Below the pieces are notes generated by a model. It ran no database searches, was not told the DNA's origin, and saw only the letters and a program-made list of their open reading frames with translations. Source: Naegleria gruberi (lineage: Eukaryota). From it: DNA of 64,000 bases. The stretch is taken from the NCBI GenBank assembly GCA_000004985.1, contig GG738912.1; one strand, 5' to 3'. Position numbers and translations under genes: made by a program. Positions 6,029-47,429 of this stretch are shown here, in pieces (the first letter of the stretch is position 1; each line of letters opens with the position of its first letter).

Positions 6029-7779
6029 TTATTGCGTTGGATCAAAGAATAAAACCAAATCCACTCGATTCTTGGGATTAGGGGAGGTGGTAAAAAGAGT
6101 ATCCTCAGAATCGTCAAATTTTCGAATCCATAATGCAAATTTTCGTAACGTTTCGCTGTCTACTTCTTGTATGTATATTTGCAATCGATCTTTGAACAGA
6201 CCTTTCTTTGTGCTCGTTAACTTTCGTTCTCTCTCACTTGGTAATAAGGTAAAATCGAATAGCTCATTATTAAATGTTATTGTTCTCGAATGGTTATCTT
6301 GGTTCTCTATGAATGACAGGTAAAATACGTTGGTATCCTTATATCTGGGACGCGAGGGATTATGTGGAAAGTGGATATCCACAAAACGTTGTTTAGCTAT
6401 TGGTGCAATATCCTTATGATGTACCAAGTTTTTCAATACTGTTTTTGTCAATTCCTTTCCATAATTCGTTCCACTATTTGGTTCATTCATCATGAAACAA
6501 GTTACAATAGCTCCGTGATATTGTTCATTTCTTTTAAACAATGCAGAGAGAATGTAAAATCTTGTTAAAATGTGAGAATTCTTCACAATGCTCAGAATAC
6601 AGTCATCGTCTCCAAAGTGTTTGGCCAATTCTATCAGCTTAAGCTTTGCTTCACAATCGGGTAGTGAACCATCAAGCAAATATTTTACATAGCTATTGAA
6701 TGTAGGCATTATAATAGGAGTTCTATCTTTGAAAGAGGAATTTCCAATATCAATAAAAACATTTGAATTTTTTTTGAGAATTGGGTGGTAATCTGTCAGT
6801 ATCTTTGAAAAGAACTTGGACCTTTTCAAATGCTTTACACATAAATTGTGATATTGATTTTCATAGCCAATCAAAAATTCTTTCTCTGGATCTAGAGTTT
6901 CATTCAGCTCTGAAATGATTTTGCCTTCAGGGAATTGTGCATGAGCAAAGTTCAACTCTGGTTCATCAAAAAAGAACTCTAAATCCACCGATCGATTTCT
7001 TGACTTGGAGAGCCAATAATTCGATGCTCCCAAATTCTGTTCCACTCCAACTCCTGTTAGATATTTAATTCCTACTTGTATCTGAGCTGCAACATCATCT
7101 CTCTTTGCTGCTTTCAAATACAACTCAAATGCTTTTTTGTAATCTTGTTTTACATGAATTCCAAATTCGTAAAATATTCCTAGGTTGTATATTGCATCCG
7201 AATCACCAATTCCAGCATACTCAGAATACCATTCAAACTCTTCACTAAAATCACGTTCCATTCCTTGAGAAAACATGAATAATCCAGAGGATTTAAAACG
7301 TCCAATTGCACTATTTGATTTTTCAAACCATTGCATAGCCATCATTACATTTTCCTTAACAACTTTTCCCTTCTCAAAGAAGGTTCCAATCTTGTATTTG
7401 GAAATTTCATCACCTTGTTCCGAGGCTTTCATATACCATTCCAATGCTTTTTCATAACTTTTCTGCACTCCCTTTCCTTCATCATACAACCATCCAATAT
7501 TAAACTGAGCATGAGCATCACCCTGTTCAGCAGCCTTCCAATACCACTCAAATGCTTTAACATAATCCTTTTCACTCCTCTTCCCTCCTCAAACAACAAT
7601 CCAACATTGTATTGAGCATCGGAATGTCCCTGCAAGGCTGCTTTCATATACCAATGCATTGCTAAGGCACAATCCTGCTTTACTCCATCAGAACCCTCAT
7701 CAAAACAAAGCCCCAAATTATATTGAGCATCAGCATCACCTTCCTCAGCTTGTTTAAGGTAAAGATCGAGCGCGGACAT
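6029..7779 (-). CDS. Sel1-repeat + BTB/POZ domain protein, interrupted by one frame break
   Basis: ORFs 7429-7779 and 6029-7489 both read as Sel1 repeats (…AEQGDADAQYNLGLCFDEG…, …GDAHAQFNIGWLYDEGKGVQKSYEKALEWY…). Adding one A/T to the T4 run at 7569-7572 restores GVKKDYVKAFEWYWKAAEQGD and joins them. The C-terminal third resembles the BTB region of the paralog at 10613-12228. Confidence 0.6.
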
Positions 7780-10612: not shown

Positions 10613-12228
10613 GGGAGGAATTTCATAACAGAGGAGAACACGCAAAAGGCTTTGATTGTTTTTGTAAAGGTTATGAAATACACAAATCCAGCGAGTTGGA
10701 GCATGCAATTGGTTGTTGTTATACATTCGGATTGGGAGTTGAAAAGGATTATTCTAAAGCAAGGGAATGGTATTTGAAAGCTGCTGAAAAGGGATTTGCA
10801 AATTCACAAAATAATCTTGGTATGATATATGAAAATGGATTAACTGTTGAAAAGGACTTGGCTGAAGCACTGGAATGGTATTTGAAAGCTGGTGAAAATG
10901 GTGATCTAACTGCTCAAGTAAATCTTGCTCGGCTCTACCGTGACGGTGAGGGAGTTGAACAAGATTATTTGAAATCATTCGAATGGAATATGAAAGCTGC
11001 TGAAGCTGGGGATGCAGAAGCTCAAGTTCACATTGGCTATGCATATGATAAGGGTCTAGGAGTTGAACAAGATTTTTCGAAATCATTCGAATGGAATTTG
11101 AAAGGAGCAGAAAATGGGAGCCTAGATGGTCAATTTAATGTTGGACTTTTATTGGAACTGGGGGATGGAGTTGAAAAAAACATCAAGAAATCTGTGTTTT
11201 GGAAATCAAAGTGTTTTAATAGGTCAAAATGTTTTGACTTTGTAGAAGAACCTTACGAGCAGTTTGCTATGCAATATTTTACATCAAATACTGAGGATTG
11301 GAATCAATCCTCACCAAATAGTGACAAAGAACACGTAGTCGTACGATTTGAAGAGAAGGATTTCACACTTTCACAAAAGCATTTAAAGCATTCAAAATAT
11401 TTATCAACCATGATGAATTCAAATTGGAAAGATTTCAATGTCAAAGAGAAAAACCGAACCATACTTGATTTGAGAACCATTCAAAATGATATATTTCAAG
11501 AACAAACAGATATCATTCAAATATTTAATAATTATGTGAACTACTTAACAAATGAAATATTACCACCAGATTTTGACATGAAATTGAAATTAATTGAACT
11601 GTCAAGATATTTACAAGATGACGGATGTATATTGAATATTGTCAAAGAAGCAAGTATTCTGCAGAGATTTTACATTCTTTTGATATTAGAAATTATTGTT
11701 GAACCTATTCACATTGCAATTACTAGTTGTTTTGCAGCAGAAACTAAATTTAAAATCAATGATCTCTCAGAAAATGTTATTGAAAAATTACTCACTCAGT
11801 CTGGCCTATCTCAACATGGAAAGGACGAGATTTATAATGTATTTAAAGAAAAATTCAATGGATATCCTATAGCAATCAGTAAGTTGATCTATATTCAATT
11901 CTAATTTTTCCAACTTAATTTAGATATGAATATTCTTCATGTAACATTTTCAACGCTTAAAGAGAAGAAACTAATTCATTTCAATCAAGAACAAGTCGAA
12001 TTTTCTTTGGAATTGGGTAAAGATATCGATAACACTATTTTCAATATCAACAGCTCGCATGATGTTCAATTCTTTGGAAAGAATGCCAAGTTATATATCC
12101 AGATATCGAGTAGTGTTGATGGAGTATATGGATTTTGGTTGGATAACAGTTCTGAAAAAGGAAAAACTATTTTCATTTTACCTGAGATTAACTTTGAGGC
12201 ACTTAACTTGATTATAATGACTACATAA
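10613..12228 (+). CDS. Sel1-repeat + BTB/POZ domain protein; multi-exon with the 5' exon not located
   Basis: Sel1 repeats (AEKGFANSQNNLGMIYENG…, GDAEAQVHIGYAYDKG…) are followed by a BTB-like block (EHVVVRFEEKDFTLSQKHLKHSKYLSTMMNS). The frame is open from a TTTTAG acceptor at 10612 with no in-frame ATG before it, so an upstream exon is implied. Intron 11879-11924 (GTAAGT..AATTTAG) joins ORF 10696-11904 to ORF 11926-12228. Confidence 0.55.
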
Positions 12229-12286: not shown

Positions 12287-12613
12287 TCACACTTGTTGAG
12301 ATTTAGTGATTCGCAACCATCGAATGAGTTCTAAATTCTCAAGTACAGGGCTTTGACTGCTCCAATATCCACCATTTACTATTTCTTCTGTACAGGGCAT
12401 CCAAAATATCTCATCAGGAGACCAAAACCATCCATTGGTATCCATTTTTTTGAAATATATTGGGCTTACAAAGATGCTATCAACTTTGTGAATGAAAACT
12501 CCATCTGGTCTGTGAGGACGATTGGAAAAGACATCTACAATGAATTGAAATTGAGTGGCAGACCATCTCTTAGAGAATAATGCAGTCAATATCAAATATC
12601 CAACAAGCTCCAT
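12287..12613 (-). CDS. small putative secreted protein (108 aa)
   Basis: N-terminal MELVGYLILTALFS is hydrophobic; ORF bounded by AT-rich spacers; no homology recognised. Confidence 0.35.
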   Translation of the reverse strand: MELVGYLILTALFSKRWSATQFQFIVDVFSNRPHRPDGVFIHKVDSIFVSPIYFKKMDTNGWFWSPDEIFWMPCTEEIVNGGYWSSQSPVLENLELIRWLRITKSQQV

Positions 12614-12792: not shown

Positions 12793-15700
12793 TTACTTTT
12801 TATTGAGCAATGAAAGCGAGGATAAAAGGGCAACACCAGTTTTTCTTTCCTCTCCGTATTTGAATTGTCTAGTTACAAGGTTGAGTCGTTGATGGAATTG
12901 TGACTTGAGGACAGCTCGTTGTTTGGCAGTGAGGAATCTTCTTCCAATTGCTTGAATTGTTGTGGTAGATGATAAAGTTTGTTCAGAAAATTGAGTGGTC
13001 TGTTTTCTTGTAAAGGAACCTCGCAGCAAACCTTGGATAGTTTGTAAATTCTCATTCTTGATGCTTAATTCAACTCTCGTTCTTGATCCCTCAATTGCTG
13101 ATCGAATAGTGAACACCTTATCCGTTATACTCTTGAGTGATTTGGCTTGTTGAATTTGTCTGACTCGGGCTTGCAATAGCGAAATACTACTCAGAGCAAA
13201 TTCAAATTCATTCCTCTTATTGTGACACATAAAGAGAAGAGCGACAGTGTTAGATAACTCCTTCATATCAGTGAGACTCCCTCTCGTTTCATGACCATAA
13301 TACAAGCTCTGAAGATAGTTGGCAGAGTCAGAGACAGTTCTGAAATCTTCATTGACAAATCGTCCTCTAATAATACTCTGCAATGCGTTAATATATTGAA
13401 TGTTGGTATTAAGATCTCTGATTGCAATCTGTTGTTGCATGAGTGATTGAATGGATTCTGTGAGTATTTGCATTTTTTTGAATTCTTGTCTTGTTTGATT
13501 GGCTCTGTAGAGGGCAATGATCATATTTCTAGAATCGAGTAGAGAATCTCTGTCCTCATTAAAAGATCTTTTCACTAGGTTTGACCTGAAAAAGGTCTGA
13601 ATGACAATTAGTCCGCTCATTTTCATATCTCTTTGTTTGAGAGTTGTGAAAGTTCTCACCCTTGATTGAAAGATTTTCATATCTTTCTTTTTCTGATATG
13701 TTTTGAGAATGGTAGTCTTTCTTTCCAATAAGGATTGTAAAACAGTGGCCAGAGTGATAGACTTGCTAAAAGATCTTCTTGCAAGTTGCGATTTGAAGAG
13801 AGCTTGAATGATAGCAATATTTTCTCTGGTTTTTTCAATTCTTCTTTCTTCAGACATTCTATGGACAATAGATTGAATTGTTTTGATGGATTCGGTTGTG
13901 GTGGACGATTGTCTCCTGGTAGAAATTCCATGTAAGCGAGTTGTGACAATTTGAACTTTGGTCATAGAATTTGCATATTGTTTTCTAACTAGACTGGAAC
14001 TCATGAAGGTTGAAATTAAATCCATTTGAGAGGATATTCTTTCGAAAGTCTTCAATGCTAGTTGTTTTCTGCACAAGGACTGAATGTGAGTGAGAGAATT
14101 GATAACTTCTTCTCTACTGGTTCTCGCAGAATATCCTCTTGATGCAGCTTGGAGAGTACCAACACGTTGTAATTGATTTTCATGATTTTTCCTATCTGTA
14201 TTTCCTCTGGCAGCATTTTGAATTATAGTAATTGAATAGTATCTCCTTTCGTTTTGGTATTCTTGTTGAATTGAACGGCTTCTACAGACAGCTTGTAAAT
14301 TAAGAATATGCTTTTCGATACGTGATCTTGTGGAGAGTTGAATGAACCCCTTAGCAAATGATGTGAAAATCTGCAATCTCTCCTGTTCAAGGGTGGTTGC
14401 ATTTCTTTGACTTATGCCATTCCATAAAGATTGAAGTAAAATGACTTGATTGATAGAAGTAGCTTTTTCGTCTTTGGCTTGTTTTCTTCTTAATAGTGAT
14501 TGAAGAGCACTAACGTCTTGAATAGCTTCAGCATTTTCCCTACGTTTGTATTTACCTTGAAAAGCTGCTTGGATGGTGACTAAATCATGTTGAGCTCTTT
14601 CATAACCAGATCTCACAAGGACTCCTTTGGCAAGAGCATGTACATACTTGGTAAATGTTTGGAGTGCATGTATGTTTGATCTTTCCTTGTTTGCTCTCAC
14701 TAATGCTTGAATCATTTGAGTGGCATTCCTATCAATAGGAGAATAATTGTTCTTTTTAGATGATTTGTTTCTAATCAAAGCTTGCAAGACAATAATCTTG
14801 TTAAGGGTTTGATTTTTCAACATGTTGATATTTCTAGAATTAGCCAGTGCTTGTAGAGAAATTAAATCTGAAATGTGTTGCTTTCTGCTCTGTTCTTCAG
14901 CTTTTCTCCTTACCAATGCTTGCAATACTATGATACCAGAACAATCCATGTGAGTCGTGCTTCCTCTTAAAAAGGCTTGAATTATTGTTATATTTTCTAG
15001 TTGCTTTGATTCTATGTTTTGCATTGCAGAGGATCTACATCTAGCTTGTATTGCTAATACTGCATTCTTGGATATTTCAAACTCTGCTCTTGTAAATCTA
15101 TTTCTGATTAGTGACTGGATAATTTCAATATTGTTTAAGGAGTTTTTTACCAATAGTCTGGTCTTATTTCCTCTAAGGAAGGCACAAACCATTGAACTTG
15201 AACTAGTTTGTTTATCCAATTTCTTTTGTACTATTTTTGATCTTATTAATGATTCCAAAGTTTCCAATCTTTTCAAATCCAATTTCATCTTGGCAGCTTC
15301 AGATGATTTCCTAATAGTACTTTGAAGATTGGTAACAAATGCCATGCTGGTTTGAGCTAGTCTTCTTTCCATGCCTGATTGTATTAATGCATGAATAAGA
15401 TGAACACTCTCAATAGGGGATGCATGTTCAGTCCTTTCCTTGTGAGAAATTATTAAATTTTGTATCATGGAGACTGCTTCAAGTTGGTTAAGTTTGCTGG
15501 CAACTGTTGAGCTTGATCTAAAAGCAGATTGAATGGTAATAATTTGATTCTGCATGCGATTTCTACTAGTTCTTTCTGTATTACCTTGTAGCAAGGCATG
15601 CAATAGATTCACTCCACCTCTAATTTTTTGTTCATTAAACTTCCTGATAGTGGCTTGAGCAACAACCAACTTTTGAATATAAACCCTGCCATGGGAATTG

Positions 15701-18700
15701 TTCCTAACAATATGTCCTCTAATAAGAGCTTGCAAACTTGAAATTCGCTGCTTTTCACTCTCCAAACTAGCAGACACAAGGTTGGATCTTGCTGCTGATT
15801 GTATAATTTGAATTTGTTCCATCAATTTAAGCTTGACTTCTCTTTCTATGCATCCTTGGTTTAGTGTTTGAACAATTGTGGCAACATCTCTAAAAGCAGA
15901 CATTTGGAGCTTTTCAACCAGAGATTTTCCAAGTGATTGAAAGGTCAAAATAGCATCTTTTTGTCTACCATCGTTGACCCTTGTAAAGTGGCCAACTACA
16001 GCGCTTTGTATTATCTTGGTATTTCTGATTGCCTTCTCGGTTTCCCTACATTTCAAGAATCTCCTGACCAAAGATTGCATTATTTCCACCAAGTCCCTTG
16101 TTAAGTAAAAGGTTTGCCTTAATGATCTACCTTTAAAAAAAGATGCAAGGGTATTACTATCCTCAAAACGGTTCCTTACCAGAGCTGACTGTAACAAGGT
16201 TGAAATAATATCTATTTTGGACTTTTCTTGTTCCGCTAATCGCCTTGTGTTGAATGACCTAGCACTCAATGAAAGGATAGAAATCATGTCCAAATGAGCT
16301 TGTTTGCTTGTCATTACATGTTTTCCTCTGATTGCACTCTGAATTACAAGCACTTTGGTTAATTGATACATGTCCACATGGTTATTTCCACGTCCTCTGA
16401 AGAAGGCCTGAATATTAGTGATACTATCATGTACATGTGAAAAATTCTTCCTTTCCAAATATCCTCTAATGAGAGCTTGCTGAGTGTTGATGTGGTTTTT
16501 GGTAGGTTGTAGATTTTTTCTCTCATCTCTTCCTCTCATGCTAGATTGCAAATTGATGATGTAAATTGTGTACTGTTCATGTTGTGCACGTAGCGTGTGA
16601 GAAAGAATGAGAGATTGTAAAATCTTGATGTTGTTGATGCATGTTTCCGATTGTTTTCTATTGATGTATGCTCTTCCGAATGTTTCAACTAAAAGAGAAG
16701 AGTCAATCAAGTCCTGATGTTCCTTCAACTTTGCATGTCCTCTTACCACAGCTTGAACATATTTGGTGTTGTTTGAAAGGGTTGAAAGGTGAGCCTTTTC
16801 CAATTTGCTTCTTATACGAGCTTGTAAAGTTTTGATCTTGTTCAATTCATTGATGAAATCTCCTCTACAGAAAGAGGATTGTAAAAAACCTTGTACGATT
16901 TGAACATTTTCTACATTTTCAATAAATTTGTTCTCTGTCAATTGTCTTCGGGAAAGTGATTGAATAACAGTAACATATTCATTAACACTGCTTTCTATTT
17001 TCCTGGCTATAAAACCACGTACCGAAGCTTGAAGAGTCAAAATGTTATAGTGGTTATGTCTAAAGGATTTGATTTCATTCTTTTTACGAATGTTGGATTG
17101 CACCAACAATACGTTATTCATTTGTTTCTCTTGTTCTTGAGTTATTAAAAAGGTCTTGACTCTTGCCTGAAGAGTTATTATTAAACTCTTATTTTGTGAA
17201 AATTCCTTTCGTGCAAAGTTTCCAAATAAAACAGATTGGGTATTCACTAAATCTTCTCTTCTGGCAGATAAATCTTTTCTTGTGAGATAAGATCTAGCTG
17301 CAGTTTGAATCATTCTCAAGTTCGCAACACTGTTTCTAAACAAGCATCTTGTTTCGAATGTCCTTAAAAGTGCCTGAGTAAAACAGATTCTAATTAGTTC
17401 ATTCTTATGCTCCAAACGTTGCACATGACCTTTCATGAGAGAACCTAATATATTTGAGCTTTCAGTTGTGTGTTTAACAAGTTGATTTTCAATTTTTCCT
17501 TGATATAATGTTTGAATTTGATGGGCCAAATTAATTTTAACTTGAAAACCACGTCTAGTCTGTACGCCTCGCAGCCATGATTGTATAGTCGAAACCTTTC
17601 GTTGAGTTTGGTGCATCAATGAACGGTTTAGCTTCCCTGAGAAAGACGCTTGAATACTATTGATGGCATTAATTCGATGCTTCAAATCAATTCTTCCCAA
17701 ATGTCCCTTGATTGAATGCTGTAAAGTTTGAACAGCATTTTGCAAGGAATGCTTATTTACTTGCTCCAATGTGCCTCTTGCTCTTGACTGAATTAGATGG
17801 GCAGCATTTCTCGTATCATAAAATTTCATCTGTCCACTGTGGCCACGAGCCAAAGAGGTCAAGAGAAGTGCCTTATCTAAATCCGTGCAAGCTTGCGAAG
17901 CGGTATTAATGCTCCTTAATAGAGTTTGAAGAAGCAACACACCCTTTTTAAGATCTGTATATTCCTTCCTTCTTGCGACAGCGTCAATTAAAGTTTGTAG
18001 GACAAGCACGTCCGATTTATACCTTTGGACTACCTTTTGTTGTTCTAGTCCACGACCATTGGCTTGAAGAAGGGAAGCAACTTGCACATATTGAGATAGG
18101 TCCTTTCTTACAAATAAAGATCTTGAAACAGGTTGAACAAGGATAGCAACGTGTTTCTTCTTTTTAAAGTCTAGGAATACCTTTCTTGCACAACAAACAG
18201 ATTGAATTAAAGTGGATGCATTCAACGCTGAATCTTTGAATTTCTGAATCAATTTGGCTCTTATAAGCGATTGTACAAGTGTAATTCTATTACATTGTTC
18301 TTTAAAGGTTGTACGAGCATTGAAACCCCTGATTGCACTATCCATAATCAAACATTTTGAATTCAAAGATTTTCTGTTTCGGTATTCGATAAATCTTCTG
18401 GAAAGCGTTTGAATGGTAGTAATGTCATTGATTAGATGGTTCAAATTGGATTGGCATTGCTTGACCCTTATCAAGGTCTGTATTGCTTGGATATTAGAAA
18501 TTTCCTTAGAGGAGTCTTGTTTCAAAAGTATTCTCCTGATCAATGCCTGAAGTAATGGAATGGATTCACTAGTGGTTTGATATTTCTTTCTCTGATTGCA
18601 TCCTAGTATCGTAGATTGAATTACTTTGATATTTTCCATAGAAAGAGTAAAGCATTTAGCTTGTTGTCCAGCTCTGAATAATCCTTGGATTACTACAGCA

Positions 18701-21700
18701 GAGTCCAAACTTGTTGTGAGATTAGTTCTTTCCAATCTTCCAACTAATGCTGCATTGAATAGATGAGCCAAATTTCGGAGCAATTGCAGGTTTTTCCTAC
18801 TAACATTAGAAGACATCATAGCTTGCAAAACCTCAATTGAGGAGGAGAAGATTACCATTTCCTGCCTGTCAGAAGAACCCTTGATGGATGCTTGCAGAGT
18901 GAGTAAAAAATTCTCCAATTGGCTCACTTCCTTCATTGCTGCTCTTCCTCTAACAAGACTTTGAAGCAATATTATCCTACTTGTCAAAACCGAACGAGAA
19001 TGTTTAACTGATAATGCCTTGGAAAGAGCTGTAAATATTTCGGATCTATCCAATTCGAATCTATAAATTTGTCCTTCTCCTTTGCCTCTGCAAAAGCTTT
19101 GCATTATCTGTATGGCTTCCTTCTTCGATTGTAAATCTTTTTGCTTATGATGTCTCCTTACAAGTGACTGTAAAGTAATGATTTGTTGAATATTGTGTCT
19201 TGTGAAGGAGACTAATAATCTAGACCTTGAAATAGACTGAAGAATTACAATTTGTTGAATATTCTTTGCAAAACAACCTCTTTCAAGTTTTGATCTGGAG
19301 AGCGATTGAATACATTCCAAGTTCAACTTGTTAGAATTGAAATCTTCTTGTTGGTATCTTCTTCTGTGCCAAGTTTGAACGGTGAGAGCAGTAACCCTCA
19401 TCAGATTGAATGTCTCTCTGATTCTATTAGACTCGCACAACACTGCAATGTTTGAAAGGGCTTGAGTCCTGAACACCTCAAAGGCAAAGAGTGAACAAAC
19501 TCTAATTAACTCTGCATCCTCGACAAGTCTTTGGTCTTCCATGATTTCGTCCTCCTCTCCAAAATAAGGTCTCATTCTCGGTATTTCACAATTGTCAGGA
19601 TAGCAATCATAATTAAATCTAACTACAGCCTCCATGAACTCGATAATGAAAAGTGGAATATACTTGAAATCAAGTGGGAATAGCCGTATTTCGTTCAAGT
19701 ATGGGAAGAGTTGTACTTGAACCCATATCAACAAAAGGGGAACCGTAGATTTTGCATCTTCTTCTACCACCTCATCTACCTTTTTGCTTGTTGTCGAATA
19801 GTAATGTTCATTCATTTTGGTGAGAACGGATTTAAGTTTTTCTCCATCATAGTGAACCAGTAGAGCTTCGTGGAAAATGTGTGAGAGAGGGTGTTCATCT
19901 CCAATTTTCATCAATGACTTGTAATTTTCCACATACTTTTCTGCATCTTCGATTGATATCTTTTCAGAAATCAAGTCAACTATACCTCTAACATTATCAC
20001 CTCTAGGATCTAATTTTTCAATTTCCTTTCTCAAAATTGCTGGGGTTAGTTTGGATTTAATCTTATCCAAAGAAGTAGGTTCCTCTGGGAATTGTATTCC
20101 TTCTTCATCTGAAATTTTTTCAATTTCCGATTGGTCTGATGATGACTCTCTGCCATGTCTCTTCAGTGGAGGTTCTTCATAATTTGCCAGAGATTCTAAG
20201 GATGTAACCTTAGCCATATCAGTGGATGTTGGTGTTGAAGGAGTTTTTGCCTTTTTGGCAAACTTGTTGAAAAAACTTTTGATTTTTTCACTTTTTGTCT
20301 TTTTTCTTTCTAATAGTTGACTACTTGTCAATGCTATTTGCGTATTACTATATGTTGATTCATCATCATCAAGTGTATCCAAACTCTGTCCTACAGAACG
20401 GCTGAAATTATTGTTTCTTGCTGGTGCTGATGCAACAGAAAATGCAGTGAAATTACTGTGAGAAGAAATTGTATCAAAAAGATCATCCCTTTCCACAGAT
20501 CCCTTCCCATCCATTAGACTGATTTTAAATGATTTGGATATATTCATGGCTTGAGATCTTCTGACTGGACTCTTTGGAGTTGTTGAGCCAGAAGCTTTTT
20601 CAGCCAGCTCTGAAAAATTGACACCCTTTCTTCTTTTCTGAGACAAATCTTTGTGTACTCCATTAAATTCTGTCAACTTGACTAGAACTTCACTCACCTC
20701 ACTATTAACATGAGAATGGGTTGTGGTTGTACTTATTTGAGAGGCAAAGGTGTGAGTATATTGTGAATATTGAGATTCTTCTGGTGATACAGGTGTTGCT
20801 GTTTCCTTCTTTTTTCTTTTTAATTTTGTAATTATGGAAGGCAACTTTCCTAGTAGAGATTTTGATCTTCCTTTCGTGGTTTCCTTTGTTATTGGAACTA
20901 CTATAGAGGGAACAACAACTAGAGGTCCTTGAAAATTATTGTTTGCTGATGCTGATGTATTACTGGTACCAGTATGATTAGGTGTATTTCCACTAGAAAT
21001 ATCCGATGTATTCATATCATCAAAATCATTGTCAGATTCATTCTCCTCTCCTTGCATATCATTCTCTGTAATATCATCAAATGATGCTCCATACACTCTA
21101 TTGCCATGTTGAACATTTTGAGTTGATGGTGTAATGCTGGATGCACTTGGTGGTGGTGAGGGTCTTCCTCTTGGTGAAAATTCATTCCTTGGAGAACGAC
21201 CATTTGGCATGATTGACCTAGGTGATAATAAGTTACCTCCTCTCGGAGTGTATAAATTGTGAGCTAGTGAATGTGATCGATGTGTACGACCACCACTCTT
21301 GGATGAAGATGTTGTAGATGCAAGTGAACTCTTATTTGAATTATTTCTAAATCTACCAACAGGTCTATTCTGTACAGGTGGTTTACTAATTACTATGGCT
21401 ACAGGTGTGGAGGAATTAATTGATGGTGAATTATCGCTATTATTGTTGGTTTGTTTACTCGATGTTACTAAATTATTCGAATAGATTATTACTCCTCCTC
21501 CATTAGTTGAAGAAGTACTTGTTCCATTCTGATTATTAGGTATTTGTCTATAGAAGGAAGAAGATGAATGTAGGGATGTATTGCTATTATTGTTACTATT
21601 ATTGAAAAGGGATGCTGGATTGGAATTTTGAATGGCAGAAAGTTTTAACTGGGGAATGACAGCAGGTACTCTTTTCGAGGAAGTAGAAGAGAAGGTAGAT

Positions 21701-22275
21701 GCATTAGGTGGAGTGGATGGAGAAATTGGTGAAAAGGTCGTGTTATTACTTCCCTGAAGATGATGAAGATTTGAGGCAAAATTGGGACTTGATGACTGAG
21801 AACGATGTCTTGGTGATAATGTCGATGATGAAGACAATGAATTGGCAAGTGATAAATTAGAAGAACCCACATTCCGTAAAACTGAAGAAGCCGAAAGTAT
21901 TCCTCCTCCTACTCCTCCTGGTGAATTCGAGTTATCCAAACATTGACTATTACCTATCGATAATTGACCTCCATTATTATTATTATTACTAATAATATTA
22001 TTATTAATCGAAGCAGCAATCAATCCTCCAATATTATTATTATTATTATCCATAATACTATTATTTAAATTAATTGTTCCTTGTTGTTGCACACTTGTCG
22101 GCGATGATACAACAACAGATGCAGATGCACCTCCTCCTCCTCCCTGAGCAGACGAAGAAATACTTCCATTGAAAAGAACATTTTGTGCAGCTGCTGATGA
22201 TGATAAATTGGCGGCGGGAAGTAAATCTTGATGGAGGCGGGAAGTGATTTTTTCGGGATTTATCGAATTTCCCAT
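12793..22275 (-). CDS. giant IQ-motif array protein (3160 aa), ASPM/Asp-like architecture without recognisable CH or motor domain
   Basis: Uninterrupted 9.5-kb ORF. The N-terminal ~700 aa are S/N/G-rich and disordered. A ~250-aa globular region follows (…LLIWVQVQLFPYLNEIRLFPLDFKYIPLF…). Then ~2100 aa consist of degenerate repeats with ~23–27-aa period matching the IQ consensus [IVL]Qxx[IVL]RGxxxR (e.g. IQSLVRRHH, IQALIRGHIVR, LQSLVRGRAAMK), running to the C-terminus. Confidence 0.75.
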   Translation of the reverse strand: MGNSINPEKITSRLHQDLLPAANLSSSAAAQNVLFNGSISSSAQGGGGGASASVVVSSPTSVQQQGTINLNNSIMDNNNNNIGGLIAASINNNIISNNNNNGGQLSIGNSQCLDNSNSPGGVGGGILSASSVLRNVGSSNLSLANSLSSSSTLSPRHRSQSSSPNFASNLHHLQGSNNTTFSPISPSTPPNASTFSSTSSKRVPAVIPQLKLSAIQNSNPASLFNNSNNNSNTSLHSSSSFYRQIPNNQNGTSTSSTNGGGVIIYSNNLVTSSKQTNNNSDNSPSINSSTPVAIVISKPPVQNRPVGRFRNNSNKSSLASTTSSSKSGGRTHRSHSLAHNLYTPRGGNLLSPRSIMPNGRSPRNEFSPRGRPSPPPSASSITPSTQNVQHGNRVYGASFDDITENDMQGEENESDNDFDDMNTSDISSGNTPNHTGTSNTSASANNNFQGPLVVVPSIVVPITKETTKGRSKSLLGKLPSIITKLKRKKKETATPVSPEESQYSQYTHTFASQISTTTTHSHVNSEVSEVLVKLTEFNGVHKDLSQKRRKGVNFSELAEKASGSTTPKSPVRRSQAMNISKSFKISLMDGKGSVERDDLFDTISSHSNFTAFSVASAPARNNNFSRSVGQSLDTLDDDESTYSNTQIALTSSQLLERKKTKSEKIKSFFNKFAKKAKTPSTPTSTDMAKVTSLESLANYEEPPLKRHGRESSSDQSEIEKISDEEGIQFPEEPTSLDKIKSKLTPAILRKEIEKLDPRGDNVRGIVDLISEKISIEDAEKYVENYKSLMKIGDEHPLSHIFHEALLVHYDGEKLKSVLTKMNEHYYSTTSKKVDEVVEEDAKSTVPLLLIWVQVQLFPYLNEIRLFPLDFKYIPLFIIEFMEAVVRFNYDCYPDNCEIPRMRPYFGEEDEIMEDQRLVEDAELIRVCSLFAFEVFRTQALSNIAVLCESNRIRETFNLMRVTALTVQTWHRRRYQQEDFNSNKLNLECIQSLSRSKLERGCFAKNIQQIVILQSISRSRLLVSFTRHNIQQIITLQSLVRRHHKQKDLQSKKEAIQIMQSFCRGKGEGQIYRFELDRSEIFTALSKALSVKHSRSVLTSRIILLQSLVRGRAAMKEVSQLENFLLTLQASIKGSSDRQEMVIFSSSIEVLQAMMSSNVSRKNLQLLRNLAHLFNAALVGRLERTNLTTSLDSAVVIQGLFRAGQQAKCFTLSMENIKVIQSTILGCNQRKKYQTTSESIPLLQALIRRILLKQDSSKEISNIQAIQTLIRVKQCQSNLNHLINDITTIQTLSRRFIEYRNRKSLNSKCLIMDSAIRGFNARTTFKEQCNRITLVQSLIRAKLIQKFKDSALNASTLIQSVCCARKVFLDFKKKKHVAILVQPVSRSLFVRKDLSQYVQVASLLQANGRGLEQQKVVQRYKSDVLVLQTLIDAVARRKEYTDLKKGVLLLQTLLRSINTASQACTDLDKALLLTSLARGHSGQMKFYDTRNAAHLIQSRARGTLEQVNKHSLQNAVQTLQHSIKGHLGRIDLKHRINAINSIQASFSGKLNRSLMHQTQRKVSTIQSWLRGVQTRRGFQVKINLAHQIQTLYQGKIENQLVKHTTESSNILGSLMKGHVQRLEHKNELIRICFTQALLRTFETRCLFRNSVANLRMIQTAARSYLTRKDLSARREDLVNTQSVLFGNFARKEFSQNKSLIITLQARVKTFLITQEQEKQMNNVLLVQSNIRKKNEIKSFRHNHYNILTLQASVRGFIARKIESSVNEYVTVIQSLSRRQLTENKFIENVENVQIVQGFLQSSFCRGDFINELNKIKTLQARIRSKLEKAHLSTLSNNTKYVQAVVRGHAKLKEHQDLIDSSLLVETFGRAYINRKQSETCINNIKILQSLILSHTLRAQHEQYTIYIINLQSSMRGRDERKNLQPTKNHINTQQALIRGYLERKNFSHVHDSITNIQAFFRGRGNNHVDMYQLTKVLVIQSAIRGKHVMTSKQAHLDMISILSLSARSFNTRRLAEQEKSKIDIISTLLQSALVRNRFEDSNTLASFFKGRSLRQTFYLTRDLVEIMQSLVRRFLKCRETEKAIRNTKIIQSAVVGHFTRVNDGRQKDAILTFQSLGKSLVEKLQMSAFRDVATIVQTLNQGCIEREVKLKLMEQIQIIQSAARSNLVSASLESEKQRISSLQALIRGHIVRNNSHGRVYIQKLVVAQATIRKFNEQKIRGGVNLLHALLQGNTERTSRNRMQNQIITIQSAFRSSSTVASKLNQLEAVSMIQNLIISHKERTEHASPIESVHLIHALIQSGMERRLAQTSMAFVTNLQSTIRKSSEAAKMKLDLKRLETLESLIRSKIVQKKLDKQTSSSSMVCAFLRGNKTRLLVKNSLNNIEIIQSLIRNRFTRAEFEISKNAVLAIQARCRSSAMQNIESKQLENITIIQAFLRGSTTHMDCSGIIVLQALVRRKAEEQSRKQHISDLISLQALANSRNINMLKNQTLNKIIVLQALIRNKSSKKNNYSPIDRNATQMIQALVRANKERSNIHALQTFTKYVHALAKGVLVRSGYERAQHDLVTIQAAFQGKYKRRENAEAIQDVSALQSLLRRKQAKDEKATSINQVILLQSLWNGISQRNATTLEQERLQIFTSFAKGFIQLSTRSRIEKHILNLQAVCRSRSIQQEYQNERRYYSITIIQNAARGNTDRKNHENQLQRVGTLQAASRGYSARTSREEVINSLTHIQSLCRKQLALKTFERISSQMDLISTFMSSSLVRKQYANSMTKVQIVTTRLHGISTRRQSSTTTESIKTIQSIVHRMSEERRIEKTRENIAIIQALFKSQLARRSFSKSITLATVLQSLLERKTTILKTYQKKKDMKIFQSRVRTFTTLKQRDMKMSGLIVIQTFFRSNLVKRSFNEDRDSLLDSRNMIIALYRANQTRQEFKKMQILTESIQSLMQQQIAIRDLNTNIQYINALQSIIRGRFVNEDFRTVSDSANYLQSLYYGHETRGSLTDMKELSNTVALLFMCHNKRNEFEFALSSISLLQARVRQIQQAKSLKSITDKVFTIRSAIEGSRTRVELSIKNENLQTIQGLLRGSFTRKQTTQFSEQTLSSTTTIQAIGRRFLTAKQRAVLKSQFHQRLNLVTRQFKYGEERKTGVALLSSLSLLNKK

Positions 22276-22709: not shown

Positions 22710-23821
22710 TTTGATTCGAAATTTGGAATTAAACCTGATAATATTACACTCACAACAATTCTTCTGTCCTGTGCTGAACATCATGATATTGGAAAGGGTC
22801 ATACCCGACTACATCAAGGAGAATAGACTTGTTGGTGATGTCTCATAAACTTTTACTCTAAATGTACTGATTTAGAGACTGCTCTCTCAATTTTCGAATC
22901 AATTATTAAGAAAAAGAAGGAAGTGAACTCATACACGTACAATGCTATTATTTTTGCATGTGCAGAGCATGGGCAGTCAAGCCATTGCTTTAAATTCTTC
23001 ACTCAAATGATACAGAGCAATATTGAGTTATTGCCAACACCAGAAACATTCACAGCTTTGCTTACTGCTTGTAGCCATTCTCATATGTACGATAAAGCCT
23101 GGGATATCTACAATTCTATGGGAACAAGTTTCGGTATTGAACCAAGTAATATTCATACATCTTGTTTGATTGATGCACTAGCGAGATCTGGGCAATTTGT
23201 GAAAGCTCTTGAAATAATTGGAAAACGCAAAGATAAAGTATATTGGATGACTCTGATGGGAGCATGTAGAAAATTCAACCATGTTGAGATAGCAGAGAAG
23301 GCTTTTGATGCATTGATTGACATTGATTCAACAGATGGTTCATATTATGTTTTATTATCCCATATTTATATATTCAACAATCAAATGGAAAAGGCAGCAA
23401 CAATAAGATTTAATGAAATATAATAATGGCTCAAAAGTTGTTGGAGTCACTTCTGTGATACATTGGCGACGAGATTCACACCCAGTGATGACAGATAAGC
23501 ATCTCATTCAAGTCGAGCTTGATAAATTGATTAATGAACTAATGGAGGCAGGTTATTCTCCAGATACTAGATGGGTTACCAGAATAGAAACTTTGAGCAC
23601 TGAAGAAAAACGAAACCTTTTATGTAGGCATTCTGAAAAGATTGCCATGGCGTATGCTTTTGTCAGAATGCCAAAAACTAAACAAATAGTCTTATTCCAA
23701 AACCTGACTGCCATGAAGCAACAAAGTACATTTCCAAAGTGAGAAAATGATTGTTGTGAGAGATGCAAGTCGATACTACCATATTAAGGACGGAAAATGT
23801 AGCTGTGGTGATAATTGGTAA
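22710..23821 (+). pseudogene. truncated PPR–E–DYW (plant-type organellar RNA-editing factor) gene with several frame disruptions
   Basis: Conceptual translation across three frames gives …FGIKPDNITLTTILLSCAEHHDIGKG / VIPDYIKENRLVGDV / INFYSKCTDLETALSIFESI…YTYNAIIFACAEHGQ…TFTALLTACSHSHMYDKAWDIY…CLIDALARSGQ…, a PPR/E motif series. It continues …SHP…HSEKIAMAYAFV…NL.CHEATKYISKVRKMIVVRDASRYYHIKDGKCSCGDNW*, a DYW deaminase domain that has HxE but lacks the first Cys of CxDCH. There is no N-terminal PPR array and no in-frame start. Confidence 0.5.
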
Positions 23822-24852: not shown

Positions 24853-27742
24853 TTGGATCACAATAATATTATACAATATATTATAATATTCAAGAATAAT
24901 TATACTATGAATCATCCTGCACCCAATAATAGTGATATCATCAACTATGCAAATGGGCATCCTCATCGTCATAACCAACAACAACAGCAGCAACAAGATA
25001 CTCAACACTTTTATTCAAAATCCTATCCAACTTCCTTTAATAATGAAATTGGAAACATCAACAGAAGTGAAGGGGTGAGAGAACCACTCAACCCTGTTTG
25101 GAATAATACTCAACCATATCAGAACCCAAATAAGAGTGCAGCCTCCATGCTCATGTTTCCTCATGATGATGACAGAAGTCCTCTAACCTATTCATTAATA
25201 TCTTCACCTGCCAACAATACTACAAATACAACAACACCATGTACATCTTCTCACAACCGTAATGCTAACAATACCACTAGTTCAAGTATACCACAAGCAT
25301 CAACAGAGAGATCCTCATGTACTAACTACATGTATCCAACGTCCTCAAACAACAACTCAAACATCCAACAACAATATCCTCAAAGGAAACAATCTTCTCC
25401 ACCACCTCACTATCCAATCAGAAATAATAATCAATCTGTACATGATGTGGCGCCTTCACCCATACAGCGTAATACACCTTCTTCAAATGGCTCAACCATA
25501 AACAGTCAATTGCTCCATGACTGTCGGGGTGTACAAATTAATAATTATGATATACCTAGTTCGAATTGTCAAAGAGAGGATGGAAAATCATTCATCCAAC
25601 AACCTGATCAGCTTGTCCAAACAAAACAAGAATTCAAAACAAACATAACCATCAGTAGCAGCTCGGATATTGATTTTCCCAACAATATGAATAATACCAA
25701 TAGAGTTTCGACTGATCATCATCAGCCTACATGTATTATTAATAATAATAATTATAATAATAATAATAATATGAACGAATTCAATAACACTAGAAGAACA
25801 ACATCATCATCAACATATGGTTATAATAATAATAATTCTACGACATTAGACCAGAATATGTTTAATAATTCCTCTTCACCACCTCCTTCTTCCATGTTGC
25901 AATATTATAACTCACAACAACATCATAACAACAACAATAACTCTGTATCAAATATTCCTAATCAGAAGAGAATTTCTCCAACTGTAAATTATGAATCTTC
26001 TTCGACTGGTAGGATTGTTGATGAATCAGCATCATATCATAATGGTAGTAGAGCAACAACAAGCTTACCACAACAACAGCATGCAGCAACATCCTCACAT
26101 GACAATACACATGTACTACCTTATTATAATGCACATCCTTCTAGACATGCATCGCCTACATCCACCACCTATCAATACTCCCCACATCAGCAGCACCAAC
26201 AACAACATGTACAACAATCACCTAGAAGTTTGCCAACTGATCAGCCGAGAGAATATCCTTCTTCTTATTCTGATCCAGTGGTGAGTAATTCTTCTCAACC
26301 ACCACAGTATCAGCCATCATTACAGAAAGATAATAGATCGTTGGATCCTTCTTATTCAGCTAATGGATATCACTCGCAACAGCAGTATCAATTAACAACA
26401 CAAATAATACTACTAGCAGCAATCATACTAGATCAAATTTAAGTGCTAATTTCCATTCCTCAACTGATTTTTCATTTAGTGGAAGAAATGCAAGTCATAG
26501 TGGATCCTCTGATGATAATTCTGATTCAAAACTGAATCATGGAGGAGCTTTGAATGGTGATTCTAGAAAACACAAGAAGAAAGGTCCAAAGAAGAGAGAA
26601 ATTTCAAGAGATGATATGAAAAAGTATTTCCATGTTTCTCAAACAGTTGCTGCTAAAATGTTAGGAGTTTCAGTTAGTACTCTTAAAAGAAGGTAAGTTG
26701 TCTTCTCGAAGAAAATCATCTAATTCTTGTATTTATCATGTTTGCTCTCATGTACATTGATTGCATAATACTTAATGTAAATGTATTAATTATCAATATT
26801 ATGTTGATGCATCTTACATCCAATGCATGTATCTGAATTTAAATTATATCGGATGAACCAATTCGCTTTTTGCTGATTCCTCCCTTAATGCATTTAACAT
26901 TGGTATTTACCGTAAAAAAACTTACTTTCATATTTGGACTTTAAGATTTTATGAGGAGTTTAACATGAAATGGCCATATGTGCCTTCAAAAACCAATACT
27001 TCAAAGAGAAAGAAGGATGACAATGGGGAGACAACATTGGGAAGTGGTGATAATAGTCAACAAAACTCAGATGAGCATGCTTCATCACATGAGATGGTAC
27101 TTCCTCATCAACAACAGCAACTGCAACCACCATCCTCATTCGATTCACCTTATAAGAAATTGAAGAGAGATGTTATCTTTGATCCACCAAATAATGTAGT
27201 TAGCGAGCAAAATCATCTTTCTGCAACATTCACATACTTCTTATCAAAATAATGTTCAGAATGCACCACCACCTCAATATTCTCAAATGAATGATAGAAA
27301 TTCATCCACACATGGATCCATGCATGCCTATCCAACATCCATTAATGTAAATAATAATCATATAGAAAATGGATCAACTAGTTTACATATCAGAAATGAG
27401 AATGTTTCAAATGTAGCTCCAACAAGACATGCTCAAGTGGTTTCTTATCAACATGCTGAACCTTATCCTCCTTCCTCTTCTGCTACCATTCGAAACAATA
27501 TCAATAACAGTACATCTACCTCACTCATGTCTTATCATGCTCCACAACAAACAATGAACCATGCCAATCATGGTATCATACATTCTAATTCACCTCCTGG
27601 TTACATGATGAGAGGAGAAGATGTTTATTCATCAGCTGCAACTACATCTCAATCACAACATTTTGAAGCAGCTACAGTTTCTGGACCAACTACCAATATG
27701 TTACCTCCTATTTCCTCTTTTAAAATGGAATCTTGGAAGTAA
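24853..27742 (+). CDS. N/Q/S-rich RWP-RK domain protein; at least 3 exons
   Basis: A long low-complexity ORF shifts frame by one base near 26380-26400 into SANFHSS…KKREISRDDMKKYFHVSQTVAAKMLGVSVSTLKRR (RWP-RK N-terminal half). The GTAAGT donor at 26693, intron 26693-26945 and acceptor TTTAAG give R-FYEEFNMKWPYVPSK (the RWPxRK position reads MKWPY). A second intron 27196-27259 (GTAGTT..TTCAG) joins to ORF 27287-27742. Confidence 0.55.
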
Positions 27743-30083: not shown

Positions 30084-31526
30084 ATGTTCGCAGAGGAAAC
30101 TCATGGTCATTACCATGATAAAAAGAAGACGAAACTCGCCAAAGATAATGTTGACGAAATGATTGAAATTGAAATGCCAAATAATGCAAATAACAGCAGT
30201 AGTGGAAACGGAGATGTGGCTGGACAACAAACAGTAATGCATAGAATTGGTTCTTCTCCGACCTTTAGTCCAGTTTCTGTTCCTAGGTTAAATGTTTCGT
30301 ATGTGGATCAAGCTACTCGAGAGTGGCAATCGGATTTTAAACAATTTCCTCTAGTGGATACAGCCAATATTTCAAAGAAGGAAGTTGTAGAGTTTTACGA
30401 AAAGCAAAATGAAATGGTTGATGAATATTCGAAACTTTTCAAATCCAAGTTGGAGCATTCGGACGAAACTACAACTGAAGGCGATTTGACAGGACGTTCT
30501 GTTGCCAATGAAGCTGCTTTCGAACAGGAAGAACATATTACACCTGCCATGAAAAGATTAGAATATTGGTGCATTCACTTGTCATTTTGGACAAACGTTT
30601 GTTTATTTGTGTTGAAATGTTCTGCGAGTATCTTATCAGTTTCTCTCTCAGTTATTACATCCACAATTGATTCTGCTTTGGATTTATTATCTGGTTTGAT
30701 TATTTATATTACTTCATTGTATAGAAGAAGAAAGAATGATATTTATCAATATCCAATTGGTAGAAATAGATTGGAACCAATTGGTTTTGTAATTTTTGCT
30801 ACTTGTATGTGTACTGCAAGTTTGCAAATTATCAAGGAAGGTTTATCTCAAATCGTGACAGGTCTCATTACAGGTGATGTTTATATTAATGCAAATAGCT
30901 CAGATGATTCAAATGCTGAAGTTGACTGGATGTTTGGTATTATGATTCCTAAATATGTTGCCACTATTTTCTATTGGTATGGTATTGGTGTCCTGTTGGC
31001 AACCATTCTCATCAAATTGGCTCTCCATTTGATTTGTAGAAGAGTTAAACATTCTCCTTCAGTTATTGCCTATGCATTCGATCACAGAAATGATGTCTTG
31101 TCTAATAGTTTGTTGCTTGTTTCCCTATTCTTGAGCAAATATTTGTGGTGGCTCGATTCTATTGGTGCTGTCATTTTGAGTATTTACATTATTAAGAGTT
31201 GGATTGACGAATCTTTGGAACATGTGACTAAACTTGTTGGTTTGACTGCTGATAAGGAATACATTCAAAAGTTGACATTCATGGCATTGAATCATAGTCC
31301 TCTAATTACTCAAGTTGATTCAGTAATGGCCTATTATTCTGGTGCCAATATGATTGTTGAGATTGATGTTGTCTTGCCAAAGGAAACTCCACTCTTGGAA
31401 TCTCACGACGTTGGTGAAACATTGCAAAAGAAGATTGAATCCTTGCCAGATGTTGAAAGATGTTATGTCCATTTGGATTATGAATTTTCACATACAAAGG
31501 ATTATGAACATGTCGTTAAGGATTAA
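30084..31526 (+). CDS. cation diffusion facilitator family transporter, Mn-type (DxxxD motif)
   Basis: Six TM helices; SASILSVSLSVITSTIDSALDLLSGLIIY…YQYPIGRNRLEPIGFVIFATCMCTASLQIIKEG matches the Mn-CDF (MTP8/11-like) TM2–TM5 consensus; C-terminal cytoplasmic domain present. Confidence 0.8.
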   Translation: MFAEETHGHYHDKKKTKLAKDNVDEMIEIEMPNNANNSSSGNGDVAGQQTVMHRIGSSPTFSPVSVPRLNVSYVDQATREWQSDFKQFPLVDTANISKKEVVEFYEKQNEMVDEYSKLFKSKLEHSDETTTEGDLTGRSVANEAAFEQEEHITPAMKRLEYWCIHLSFWTNVCLFVLKCSASILSVSLSVITSTIDSALDLLSGLIIYITSLYRRRKNDIYQYPIGRNRLEPIGFVIFATCMCTASLQIIKEGLSQIVTGLITGDVYINANSSDDSNAEVDWMFGIMIPKYVATIFYWYGIGVLLATILIKLALHLICRRVKHSPSVIAYAFDHRNDVLSNSLLLVSLFLSKYLWWLDSIGAVILSIYIIKSWIDESLEHVTKLVGLTADKEYIQKLTFMALNHSPLITQVDSVMAYYSGANMIVEIDVVLPKETPLLESHDVGETLQKKIESLPDVERCYVHLDYEFSHTKDYEHVVKD

Positions 31527-46900: not shown

Positions 46901-47429
46901 TAGAGAAATTGAGAACTCTACAATTGTTATTTCTCAAATTTCTAATTTCAAGATTAGCAAACTTTTAACGGGAGAAGAACTCATCAAAACTCTTGCTACC
47001 AACAAGGGAGAAACTATTCGTGCAGAAGAAATTCTAAATGAGGAGCTGTCTATTATCACTTCATCACATAATCTGACAGAAAACACACGTATCTTACAAG
47101 TTCAACATATTTGTAAGGAAACCACAGGTTATCGTTTGTTTGGTAATCCAAGCGTTCTTGTTGTCAAGACTGAAGAAACTTTAGGAGATGTCAAGAAGAG
47201 ACTCCAAGATAAATTGCAAGTCAGAGACATTGACTATAAGAGATACAAGTTCTACTTTATTGTAAACATGAAGATCAAGGATGCTTTGGAAGATGATTCT
47301 CTATTGTTCTGTGAATTATTCGACAAGGAAAAACAATCAACCAACGTTGATGTTGTACTTGCTTTGGAACACAAGGATCCAACACCAAAAGCCAGATGGT
47401 ATGAAAAGCCAATTGTTATCAAGAATTAA
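43955..47429 (+). CDS. USP7: ubiquitin carboxyl-terminal hydrolase 7 (HAUSP)-like: MATH domain + USP catalytic domain + UBL repeats; 3 exons
   Basis: Exon 1 (43955..44387) carries a MATH domain (YHVKSFDANTEKVRWKADF…FRLLVFPRG). Exon 2 (44429..44658) ends with the Cys box GLQNQGATCYM. Exon 3 (44703..47429) begins NSLLQTLYLLTYFRKSVYKMP and has the His box YVLFSVLVHSGDVSGGHYYNF; it aligns with human USP7 to the C-terminus. Introns are 41 and 44 nt (GTTTGT..TTTAG, GTAAGT..TGATAG). Confidence 0.9.

Follow-up and report, generated by a model that had tools for sequence, protein, structure and literature searches.

A giant IQ-array protein of Naegleria that may form a rod clad in calmodulin or related light chains

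The window analysed here is a stretch of 64,000 nucleotides from contig GG738912.1 of Naegleria gruberi (assembly GCA_000004985.1). Our analysis centres on one of its genes, located on the minus strand at 12793..22275, which encodes a protein of 3160 amino acids (aa) with a computed mass of 357 kDa and a computed isoelectric point of 10.2. More than two thirds of this protein is an array of 94 units of the IQ type, the motif that binds calmodulin and myosin light chains. The gene and its parts are as follows.

12793..22275, minus strand: complete single-exon coding sequence, 3160 codons plus a TAA stop at 12793-12795
12901..19392, minus strand: array of 94 IQ-type units, aa 962-3125, delimited by segmentation, the Pfam IQ family and shuffled controls
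16150..19392, minus strand: indel-free part of the array, 47 consecutive units of 23 aa, aa 962-2042, seen in a print-out of 23 residues per line and in the segmentation
19393..20043, minus strand: conserved domain ahead of the array (pre-IQ domain), aa 745-961, 59-61% identical to Naegleria fowleri
20044..22275, minus strand: low-complexity N-terminal region rich in Ser, Asn, Thr, Gly and Pro, aa 1-744, delimited by composition and the N. fowleri alignment
22246..22275, minus strand: conserved N-terminus MGNSINPEKI, aa 1-10, with 9 of 10 residues identical in N. fowleri
12796..12900, minus strand: conserved non-repeat C-terminal tail, aa 3126-3160, ending in ..RQFKYGEERKTGVALLSSLSLLNKK

The open reading frame (ORF) contains no internal stop, and its start is the first ATG past the upstream in-frame stop. 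The two remaining minus-strand frames carry 190 and 265 stops across the same interval, so this frame is not open by chance and has been kept by selection. The GC content of the gene (0.35-0.37) is like that of the remainder of the window, which contains no runs of N. We found a single ortholog, the N. fowleri hypothetical protein FDP41_010985 (XP_044567720, P0001; 2827 aa). Its gene is 8484 bp long, consists of one exon (L001 10001-18484) and is colinear with the N. gruberi gene, and in the alignment the two proteins have in common the start MGN.INPEKI and the end ALLSSLSLLNKK, the last 12 residues of the tail being identical. Because the ortholog is single-exon and colinear, with the same start and the same end, we read the N. 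gruberi gene as single-exon as well. No additional 5' exon is needed since the start is conserved, and 3' of the gene there are only the stop, AT-rich sequence and small unrelated ORFs, none of which looks like an exon.

A preliminary description of the window had drawn this locus as a 9.5-kb single-exon ORF of 3160 aa, with a Ser/Asn-rich N-terminus of about 700 aa followed by a globular segment of about 250 aa. The uninterrupted frame and the single-exon ortholog bear out the first claim, and the two segments come close to the measured aa 1-744 and aa 745-961. Judged from its sequence, the locus is an intact, intron-free N. gruberi protein gene of the expressed type. About 180 bp 3' of its stop, on the same strand, lies an ATG-initiated ORF of 108 aa (12287-12613) that is rich in Trp, out of frame with the IQ-array gene and without likeness to the IQ protein.

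The units of the array were cut by dynamic programming with a position matrix trained on the first 47 units. Their length is overwhelmingly 23 aa (86 of the 94 units; three have 19, three 25 and two 27), which is stricter than the 23-27 aa given in the preliminary description. When the protein is printed with 23 residues per line from aa 962, 47 units stay in register, and all register shifts of the N. gruberi array fall in its C-terminal half, after aa 2020. The array does not run to the C-terminus as had been thought; it ends 35 aa earlier and is followed by the conserved tail. Scores above 3 bits were obtained for 88 of the 94 units, compared with 1.9 bits for the 99.9th percentile of shuffles, the scores of the first 47 being inflated because they form the training set. 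The identity autocorrelation peaks at lags of 23, 46, 69 and 92 residues with values of 0.13-0.17, while the maximum in 200 shuffles was 0.098.

The consensus of the units is N-I-x-h-[LIV]-Q-[SAT]-L-[IL]-R-[GSA]-x-L-x-R-K-x-[FL]-x4-N, where h is a hydrophobic residue, and its central part h-Q-x3-R-G-x3-R-K-x-F is the IQ consensus IQxxxRGxxxRK..F. A hydrophobic residue precedes the Q in 90 of the 94 units, the Q itself is present in 74, R or K at +4 in 67, G in 39 and the second R or K in 53. The core [ILVMF]Qxxx[RK] occurs 55 times, whereas 500 shuffles gave 9.2 on average and never more than 18. Pfam finds one family in the whole protein, IQ (PF00612), with 76.6 bits against a curated cut-off of 20.3, and when the units were scanned singly, IQ was found at E<=1 in 17 of the 94 units and in none of 94 shuffled units. 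The assignment of the repeats to the IQ consensus, made beforehand by inspection, thus clears the family threshold and is upheld by the shuffles and the core count.

The composition of the array fits a helical binding surface. Only five of its 2164 residues are proline (0.2%, against 6% in the N-terminal region), its net charge is +186, or about +2 per unit, and hydrophobic residues recur at the fixed unit positions 2, 4, 5, 8, 9 and 18. Such fixed hydrophobic positions together with positive charge would suit a helix that needs an acidic partner with a hydrophobic pocket. We found no tandem repeats in the array at the DNA level, and even the two units most alike have only 10 of 23 residues in common, so the array is old and a recent amplification of the repeat was rejected. 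A super-repeat of three units (69 aa), as in ASPM and GSBP, was considered too. In the autocorrelation of the whole array lag 69 slightly exceeds lag 46, but the identities at lags of whole units are flat in the indel-free half, and the super-repeat is not supported.

The N. fowleri ortholog agrees with the N. gruberi protein in its N-terminus, conserved islands, pre-IQ domain (61% identity), IQ lattice of 23 aa, C-terminal tail and single-exon structure. It differs in the number of units, about 78 (66 of them of exactly 23 aa) compared with 94 in N. gruberi. The identity between units is 17.4% between the species and 17.7% within one array, and the best-matching units of the two species are not colinear (Spearman -0.14, p 0.17). 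The phase of 23 aa has persisted in most units of N. gruberi (86 of 94) and N. fowleri (66 of 78) without orthology of the units. Selection hence acts on the pattern of the array, which comprises the IQ positions, the phase and the avoidance of proline, and not on the sequence in between.

The pre-IQ domain was searched for relatives in several ways. When phmmer was run exhaustively against 1.84 billion cluster representatives, the N. fowleri ortholog was the sole match. A word-indexed search gave zero matches but missed the N. fowleri ortholog too. Pfam at E<=10 gave chance-level matches only, a profile search of PDB sequences gave one chance match (alpha-kinase 1, E 0.3), and two scans of metagenome contigs of the Joint Genome Institute gave zero. 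By these searches the pre-IQ domain is an orphan, with no relatives beyond Naegleria in the databases covered. AlphaFold2 was run on two-sequence alignments of aa 730-1006 and aa 838-960; its secondary structure predicts an all-helical domain, at model confidence (pLDDT) of 38.9 and 45.4, and the near-invariant segment of 28 aa within it (aa 887-914, FNYDCYPDNCEIPRMRPYFGEEDEIMED) is predicted to be a loop.

Taken at the level that these patterns allow, we consider it somewhat probable (roughly 0.6) that the gene encodes a lineage-restricted giant IQ-array protein, which in Naegleria would form a rod clad in calmodulin or related light chains. Several observations weigh against this reading. 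The units are degenerate, and the full consensus [ILVMF]Qxxx[RK]Gxxx[RK] is found in only nine of the 94. The best E-value of a single unit for IQ is just 7e-4, and the 76.6 bits of the whole protein are far under the 381 bits of hare ASPM and the 167 bits of a green algal protein. The array length differs between the two species, which argues against a strict ruler function. The AlphaFold2 models of the pre-IQ domain are unusable for fold assignment, and the functions in anchoring and partner binding that we consider for the regions outside the array are guesses. Lastly, no paper in the literature names the identifiers of the N. fowleri ortholog.

The degeneracy of the units and their low IQ scores relative to ASPM, together with the charge of +186 and the lack of positional conservation of units between the species, would also be expected if the repeats no longer bound light chains. 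The bare, basic and amphipathic array might then bind acidic membranes, microtubules, actin or nucleic acids, or be fast-evolving filler. However, across some 170 units of two deeply diverged species the IQ positions and the 23-residue phase are kept although the rest has been randomised, and such retention fits a stereospecific partner that repeats with every unit. The content of E (4.8%), K (6.9%) and R (9%) would moreover be unlike that of a stable single helix rich in E and K, and a period of 23 residues would be incompatible with a heptad coiled coil. We therefore regard a bare array as improbable.

Arrays of IQ motifs are also the hallmark of myosin necks, where the motifs lie about 23 residues apart on one helix and each binds calmodulin or a light chain, giving a stiff rod. 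The Naegleria protein could hence be the remnant of an unconventional myosin that lost its motor, an extreme lever arm kept as a scaffold. The spacing of 23-25 residues that defines myosin necks agrees with this, and some of the metagenomic matches to the array are myosins with many IQ motifs (P0052-P0054 and P0056). But the lever arms of class V myosins have about six sites compared with 94 here, Pfam finds no match to Myosin_head anywhere in the protein, the N. fowleri ortholog is equally motor-less, and the exhaustive search found no relatives, myosins included, of the pre-IQ domain. A myosin origin is in our view extremely unlikely.

A decorated rod of the kind that we favour has close parallels among scaffolds that bind centrins or spasmins. 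Sfi1p, PtCenBP1 and the Spirostomum proteins GSBP1 and GSBP2 are giant, proline-poor helical backbones with tens to hundreds of sites for EF-hand proteins and a unit of 23 residues, and the genes of GSBP1 and GSBP2 are intron-free (PMC2173958, PMC9946354). The 23-residue unit is the EF-hand-binding unit of these scaffolds (PMC9946354). The Naegleria protein, which follows the same plan with dozens of sites, might accordingly be the backbone of a contractile or elastic fibre of the Sfi1, PtCenBP1 or GSBP type, in which proteins of the centrin family, instead of calmodulin, would be bound to the repeats and the filament would shorten or twist upon Ca2+; the centrin of Naegleria is well studied (Levy et al. 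1996, cited in PMC2173958). The consensus of the Sfi1-like repeats, AX7LLX3F/LX2WK/R, contains a conserved Trp (PMC2173958). These scaffolds need the W-[K/R], whereas the Naegleria array is almost free of Trp (3 in 2164 residues) and has the consensus IQxxxRGxxxRK. The hallmark LLx3[F/L]x2W[K/R] has no match in it and neither has a relaxed form, Pfam gives IQ and not Sfi1, and the positions conserved in the units (Q, R-G and R-K) belong to the IQ motif. We hence think a contractile fibre of this type quite unlikely.

The comparison with ASPM needs more space, since the preliminary description proposed an ASPM-like rod or a novel scaffold. The ASPM family is made up of an N-terminal ASH (ASPM-SPD2-Hydin) domain, one or more calponin-homology (CH) domains, the IQ array and a C-terminal region similar to HEAT or Armadillo (ARM) repeats; human ASPM has 81 IQ motifs, and the IQ motifs of Asp and ASPM bind calmodulin and myosin light chain (PMC10047693). 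When the array alone was used as the query, the best matches after P0001 were animal ASPMs, each of them with ASH, CH and IQ (E 1e-40 to 1e-12, 21-23% identity). The Naegleria protein and ASPM both have a very long, unbroken and degenerate IQ array (81 motifs in human, 94 lattice units here) with a helical domain immediately upstream. In ASPM the array changes rapidly and the domains on either side of it are conserved (PMC374243), as in the Naegleria protein. ASPM-like proteins that combine ASH, CH and IQ are found in a green alga as well as in animals, which makes the family an old one. All this could be taken to mean that the protein is the Naegleria ortholog of ASPM or Asp, diverged beyond recognition or stripped of its ASH, CH and C-terminal domains, and that it acts at spindle poles and microtubule minus ends, where with calmodulin it would focus the intranuclear spindle.

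The domain searches argue otherwise. Pfam at E<=10 found neither ASH (PF15780) in aa 1-745 or in the whole protein, nor CH (PF00307 or PF11971), while the same scan found both in the positive controls, hare ASPM (ASH 1.5e-35, CH 1.4e-13) and an ASPM-like protein of the green alga Parachlorella (CH 1e-16, ASH 8e-10). Since ASH and CH are found in both hare and Parachlorella, their detectability survives very deep divergence. There is no space for a HEAT/ARM-like region either, as just 35 aa follow the array before the stop, at a position common to both species, and untranslated sequence. The earlier statement that motor, CH and post-IQ domains are lacking is in line with these scans and with the short tail. 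The spacing differs too: the intervals between the peaks are 23, 46 and 69 in the Naegleria arrays, compared with 23, 50 (23+27) and 73 (23+23+27) in animal ASPMs. The Naegleria protein also differs from ASPM in its lack of an ASH/MSP domain, in its Ser/Asn-rich N-terminus of 744 aa beginning with MG and in having its coding sequence in a single exon, compared with the 28 exons of human ASPM (PMC374243). The likeness to ASPM arrays is at the level of the repeat consensus; it also scales with the length of the array and does not show orthology.

One segment of the pre-IQ domain deserves mention here. The best local pairing in hhalign aligns aa 844-871 (TVPLLLIWVQVQLFPYLNEIRLFPLDFK) with the first helix of the second CH domain (CH2) of ASPM (LLMDWVNAVCAFY..NFT..F), and by eye too the segment (LLLIWVQVQLFPY...F...F) resembles this helix; it lies about 116 aa ahead of the array, roughly the length of one CH domain. 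However, hhalign against an alignment of 16 ASPM CH regions gives a probability of only 0.1-0.3%, and with a hidden Markov model of ASPM CH2 the real domains score -0.3 and -1.7 bits, which 5-17% of shuffled copies equal. We therefore rejected a cryptic CH domain with the motif LL..W[VI][NQ]...Y......F...F, which has no statistical support and serves as a lead only. By domain criteria the protein is not a member of the ASPM family, with which it shares the long IQ array only, and an orthology with ASPM is in our judgement unlikely. The novel scaffold is thus the better-supported half of the earlier interpretation; the likeness of the IQ array stands, and the ASPM membership does not, given the lack of ASH, CH and HEAT.

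We return to the rod clad in light chains and to the parts of the protein that may anchor it. The N-terminal region consists of 19% Ser, 11% Asn, 8% Thr, 6% Gly and 6% Pro and is presumably disordered; Pfam at E<=10 found no family in it beyond one chance-level match. The alignment with N. fowleri reveals conserved islands at aa 312-336 (NSNKSSL..SSSKSGGRT.RSHS) and aa 343-354 (TPRGGNLLSPR), an acidic one at aa 398-420 (SFDD.TENDM.GEEN), and two basic-hydrophobic patches at aa 468-491 and aa 656-679 (KSL..K.P..ITKL.RKK and K.FFN.F.KK..KTP). The start MGN(S/N)INP is kept in both species. The PROSITE pattern of N-myristoylation (PS00008) is G-{EDRKHPFYW}-x(2)-[STAGCN]-{P}, and five of its six positions fit MGNSINP, the final one being a Pro where Pro is excluded. 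The first ten residues may hence be a possible, non-canonical N-myristoylation signal. We hypothesize that the conserved MG start and the basic-hydrophobic patches could form a lipid-based and electrostatic membrane anchor, even though MGNSINP breaks the pattern.

A second N. gruberi protein, located outside the window, was among the matches of the array query. This predicted protein, P0005 (2342 aa), combines IQ motifs with leucine-rich repeats (LRRs) and RhoGEF; in order it has a hydrophobic N-terminal segment similar to a transmembrane (TM) helix, an acidic region, about 46 IQ units mostly of 23 aa, the LRRs and a DH/RhoGEF domain. It resembles our protein in the style of the units, in their spacing of mostly 23 aa and in a C-terminus ..NKKK reminiscent of ..LNKK, and differs from it in the TM-like and acidic N-terminus, in the LRR and DH/RhoGEF after the array and in lacking the pre-IQ domain. 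The N-terminal segment of P0005 likewise suggests membrane anchoring. The two proteins of this one species suggest that the IQ array serves as a spacer or arm module in the Naegleria lineage, and that there is a Naegleria family of anchored IQ rods. A bolder version, which we hold to be rather doubtful, is that Naegleria evolved membrane-tethered rods clad in calmodulin, the present protein being anchored by lipid and patches and its paralog P0005 by its TM segment with a distal RhoGEF, and that these act as a Ca2+-tunable spacer or high-capacity calmodulin store. If so, the rods would place an effector or binding domain some 0.15-0.3 µm from the membrane, with Ca2+ stiffening them, softening them or releasing calmodulin, and such tethered rods would be without counterpart in animals, fungi or plants.

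The N. gruberi product itself is absent from the large protein collection that we searched. The exact protein of 3160 aa was not found in a collection of 15 billion protein sequences, and the array query returned no identical N. gruberi entry from the protein collection. Six neighbouring ORFs, on the other hand, are exact matches to N. gruberi proteins (D2VYS7, D2VYS8, D2VYT0, D2VYT6, D2VYT9 and D2VYU8), all of them from a contig of 238,573 bp, so the window is nuclear DNA of this species. The N. gruberi reference gene model at the IQ locus is probably wrong or missing; as the numbering of the neighbouring accessions leaves space for one model here, the gene has perhaps been mis-modelled rather than missed. 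We found no synteny of the flanking genes between N. gruberi and N. fowleri.

Among the other genes of the window, the one adjoining the IQ gene on its upstream side, read from the other strand, is a pentatricopeptide repeat (PPR) gene of the PPR-E-DYW type at 22923-23742 (+). Its PPR repeats and E motif (22923-23423) and its DYW deaminase domain (23413-23742) lie in two overlapping frames, which implies either that the gene has a short intron or a frameshift or that it is a pseudogene; the first of the two ORFs is without an ATG start. PPR editing factors of the DYW type are rare outside plants, Naegleria being a known exception. Just downstream of the IQ gene are two paralogous proteins with Sel1 repeats, at 6029-7489 (-) and 10696-11904 (+), whose C-terminal halves, outside the Sel1 repeats, are similar (..HLK.SK....L......), as is typical of an expanded Naegleria family; both ORFs begin at TTG in the program-made list, so that their true starts or first exons lie elsewhere. 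Two long low-complexity ORFs rich in Asn, Gln, Ser and Pro, at 24853-26442 (+) and 27287-27742 (+), may be exons of one gene. Further genes encode a divergent G-alpha-like protein (1721-3172, -), a Ras/Roc-like GTPase with a long N-terminal extension (33835-34896, -), a deubiquitinase of the USP7 type (44721-47429, +) and a cation-efflux transporter of the ZnT type (30084-31526, +). No EF-hand or calmodulin gene was found within the 64-kb window.

The helix, the binding of light chains, the length of the rod, the response to Ca2+ and the cellular role of the IQ-array protein are what we infer from what is established on IQ motifs in myosin necks and in Asp and ASPM (PMC10047693), as follows. 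The 2164 residues of the array would fold as one continuous alpha-helix with about 90 IQ sites, one per 23 residues, and an EF-hand light chain would wrap around each site, most likely calmodulin and possibly a calmodulin-like protein or one similar to myosin light chains. At 0.15 nm per residue the stiff, decorated rod would measure about 325 nm in N. gruberi and about 270 nm in N. fowleri, and when fully loaded the N. gruberi rod would have a mass of about 1.9 MDa. At 100° per residue successive sites would be rotated by about 140° with a rise of 3.45 nm, which would arrange the light chains in a regular helical sleeve. The strict spacing of 23 residues points to such a sleeve, which is the most economical account of the selection on phase. 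Where the rod is placed and what else it binds would presumably depend on the N-terminal region, the invariant tail and the orphan helical domain. A change in Ca2+ might alter the occupancy or the conformation of the light chains and thereby the stiffness of the rod, and it might also alter the amount of calmodulin that the rod keeps from other targets.

Rods based on IQ arrays are known; what would be new here is a lineage-restricted architecture with an orphan domain. Giant IQ arrays have been discussed almost only for ASPM and in connection with brain size. Here a free-living amoeboflagellate has an array that is at least as long as that of ASPM and more regular, without the other domains of ASPM. 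A very long IQ array may thus be recruitable independently of a function at the spindle, i.e. as a reusable module. The divergence of N. gruberi and N. fowleri can be seen as a natural experiment in which the array was randomised save for the IQ positions, the exclusion of proline and the 23-residue phase, and this pattern of conservation suggests that the constrained property is the geometry of neighbouring light chains. The protein would be a candidate for the cell biology of Naegleria, a genus that includes the brain-eating pathogen N. fowleri, in which this large, lineage-specific and probably calmodulin-dependent structural protein is annotated merely as hypothetical.

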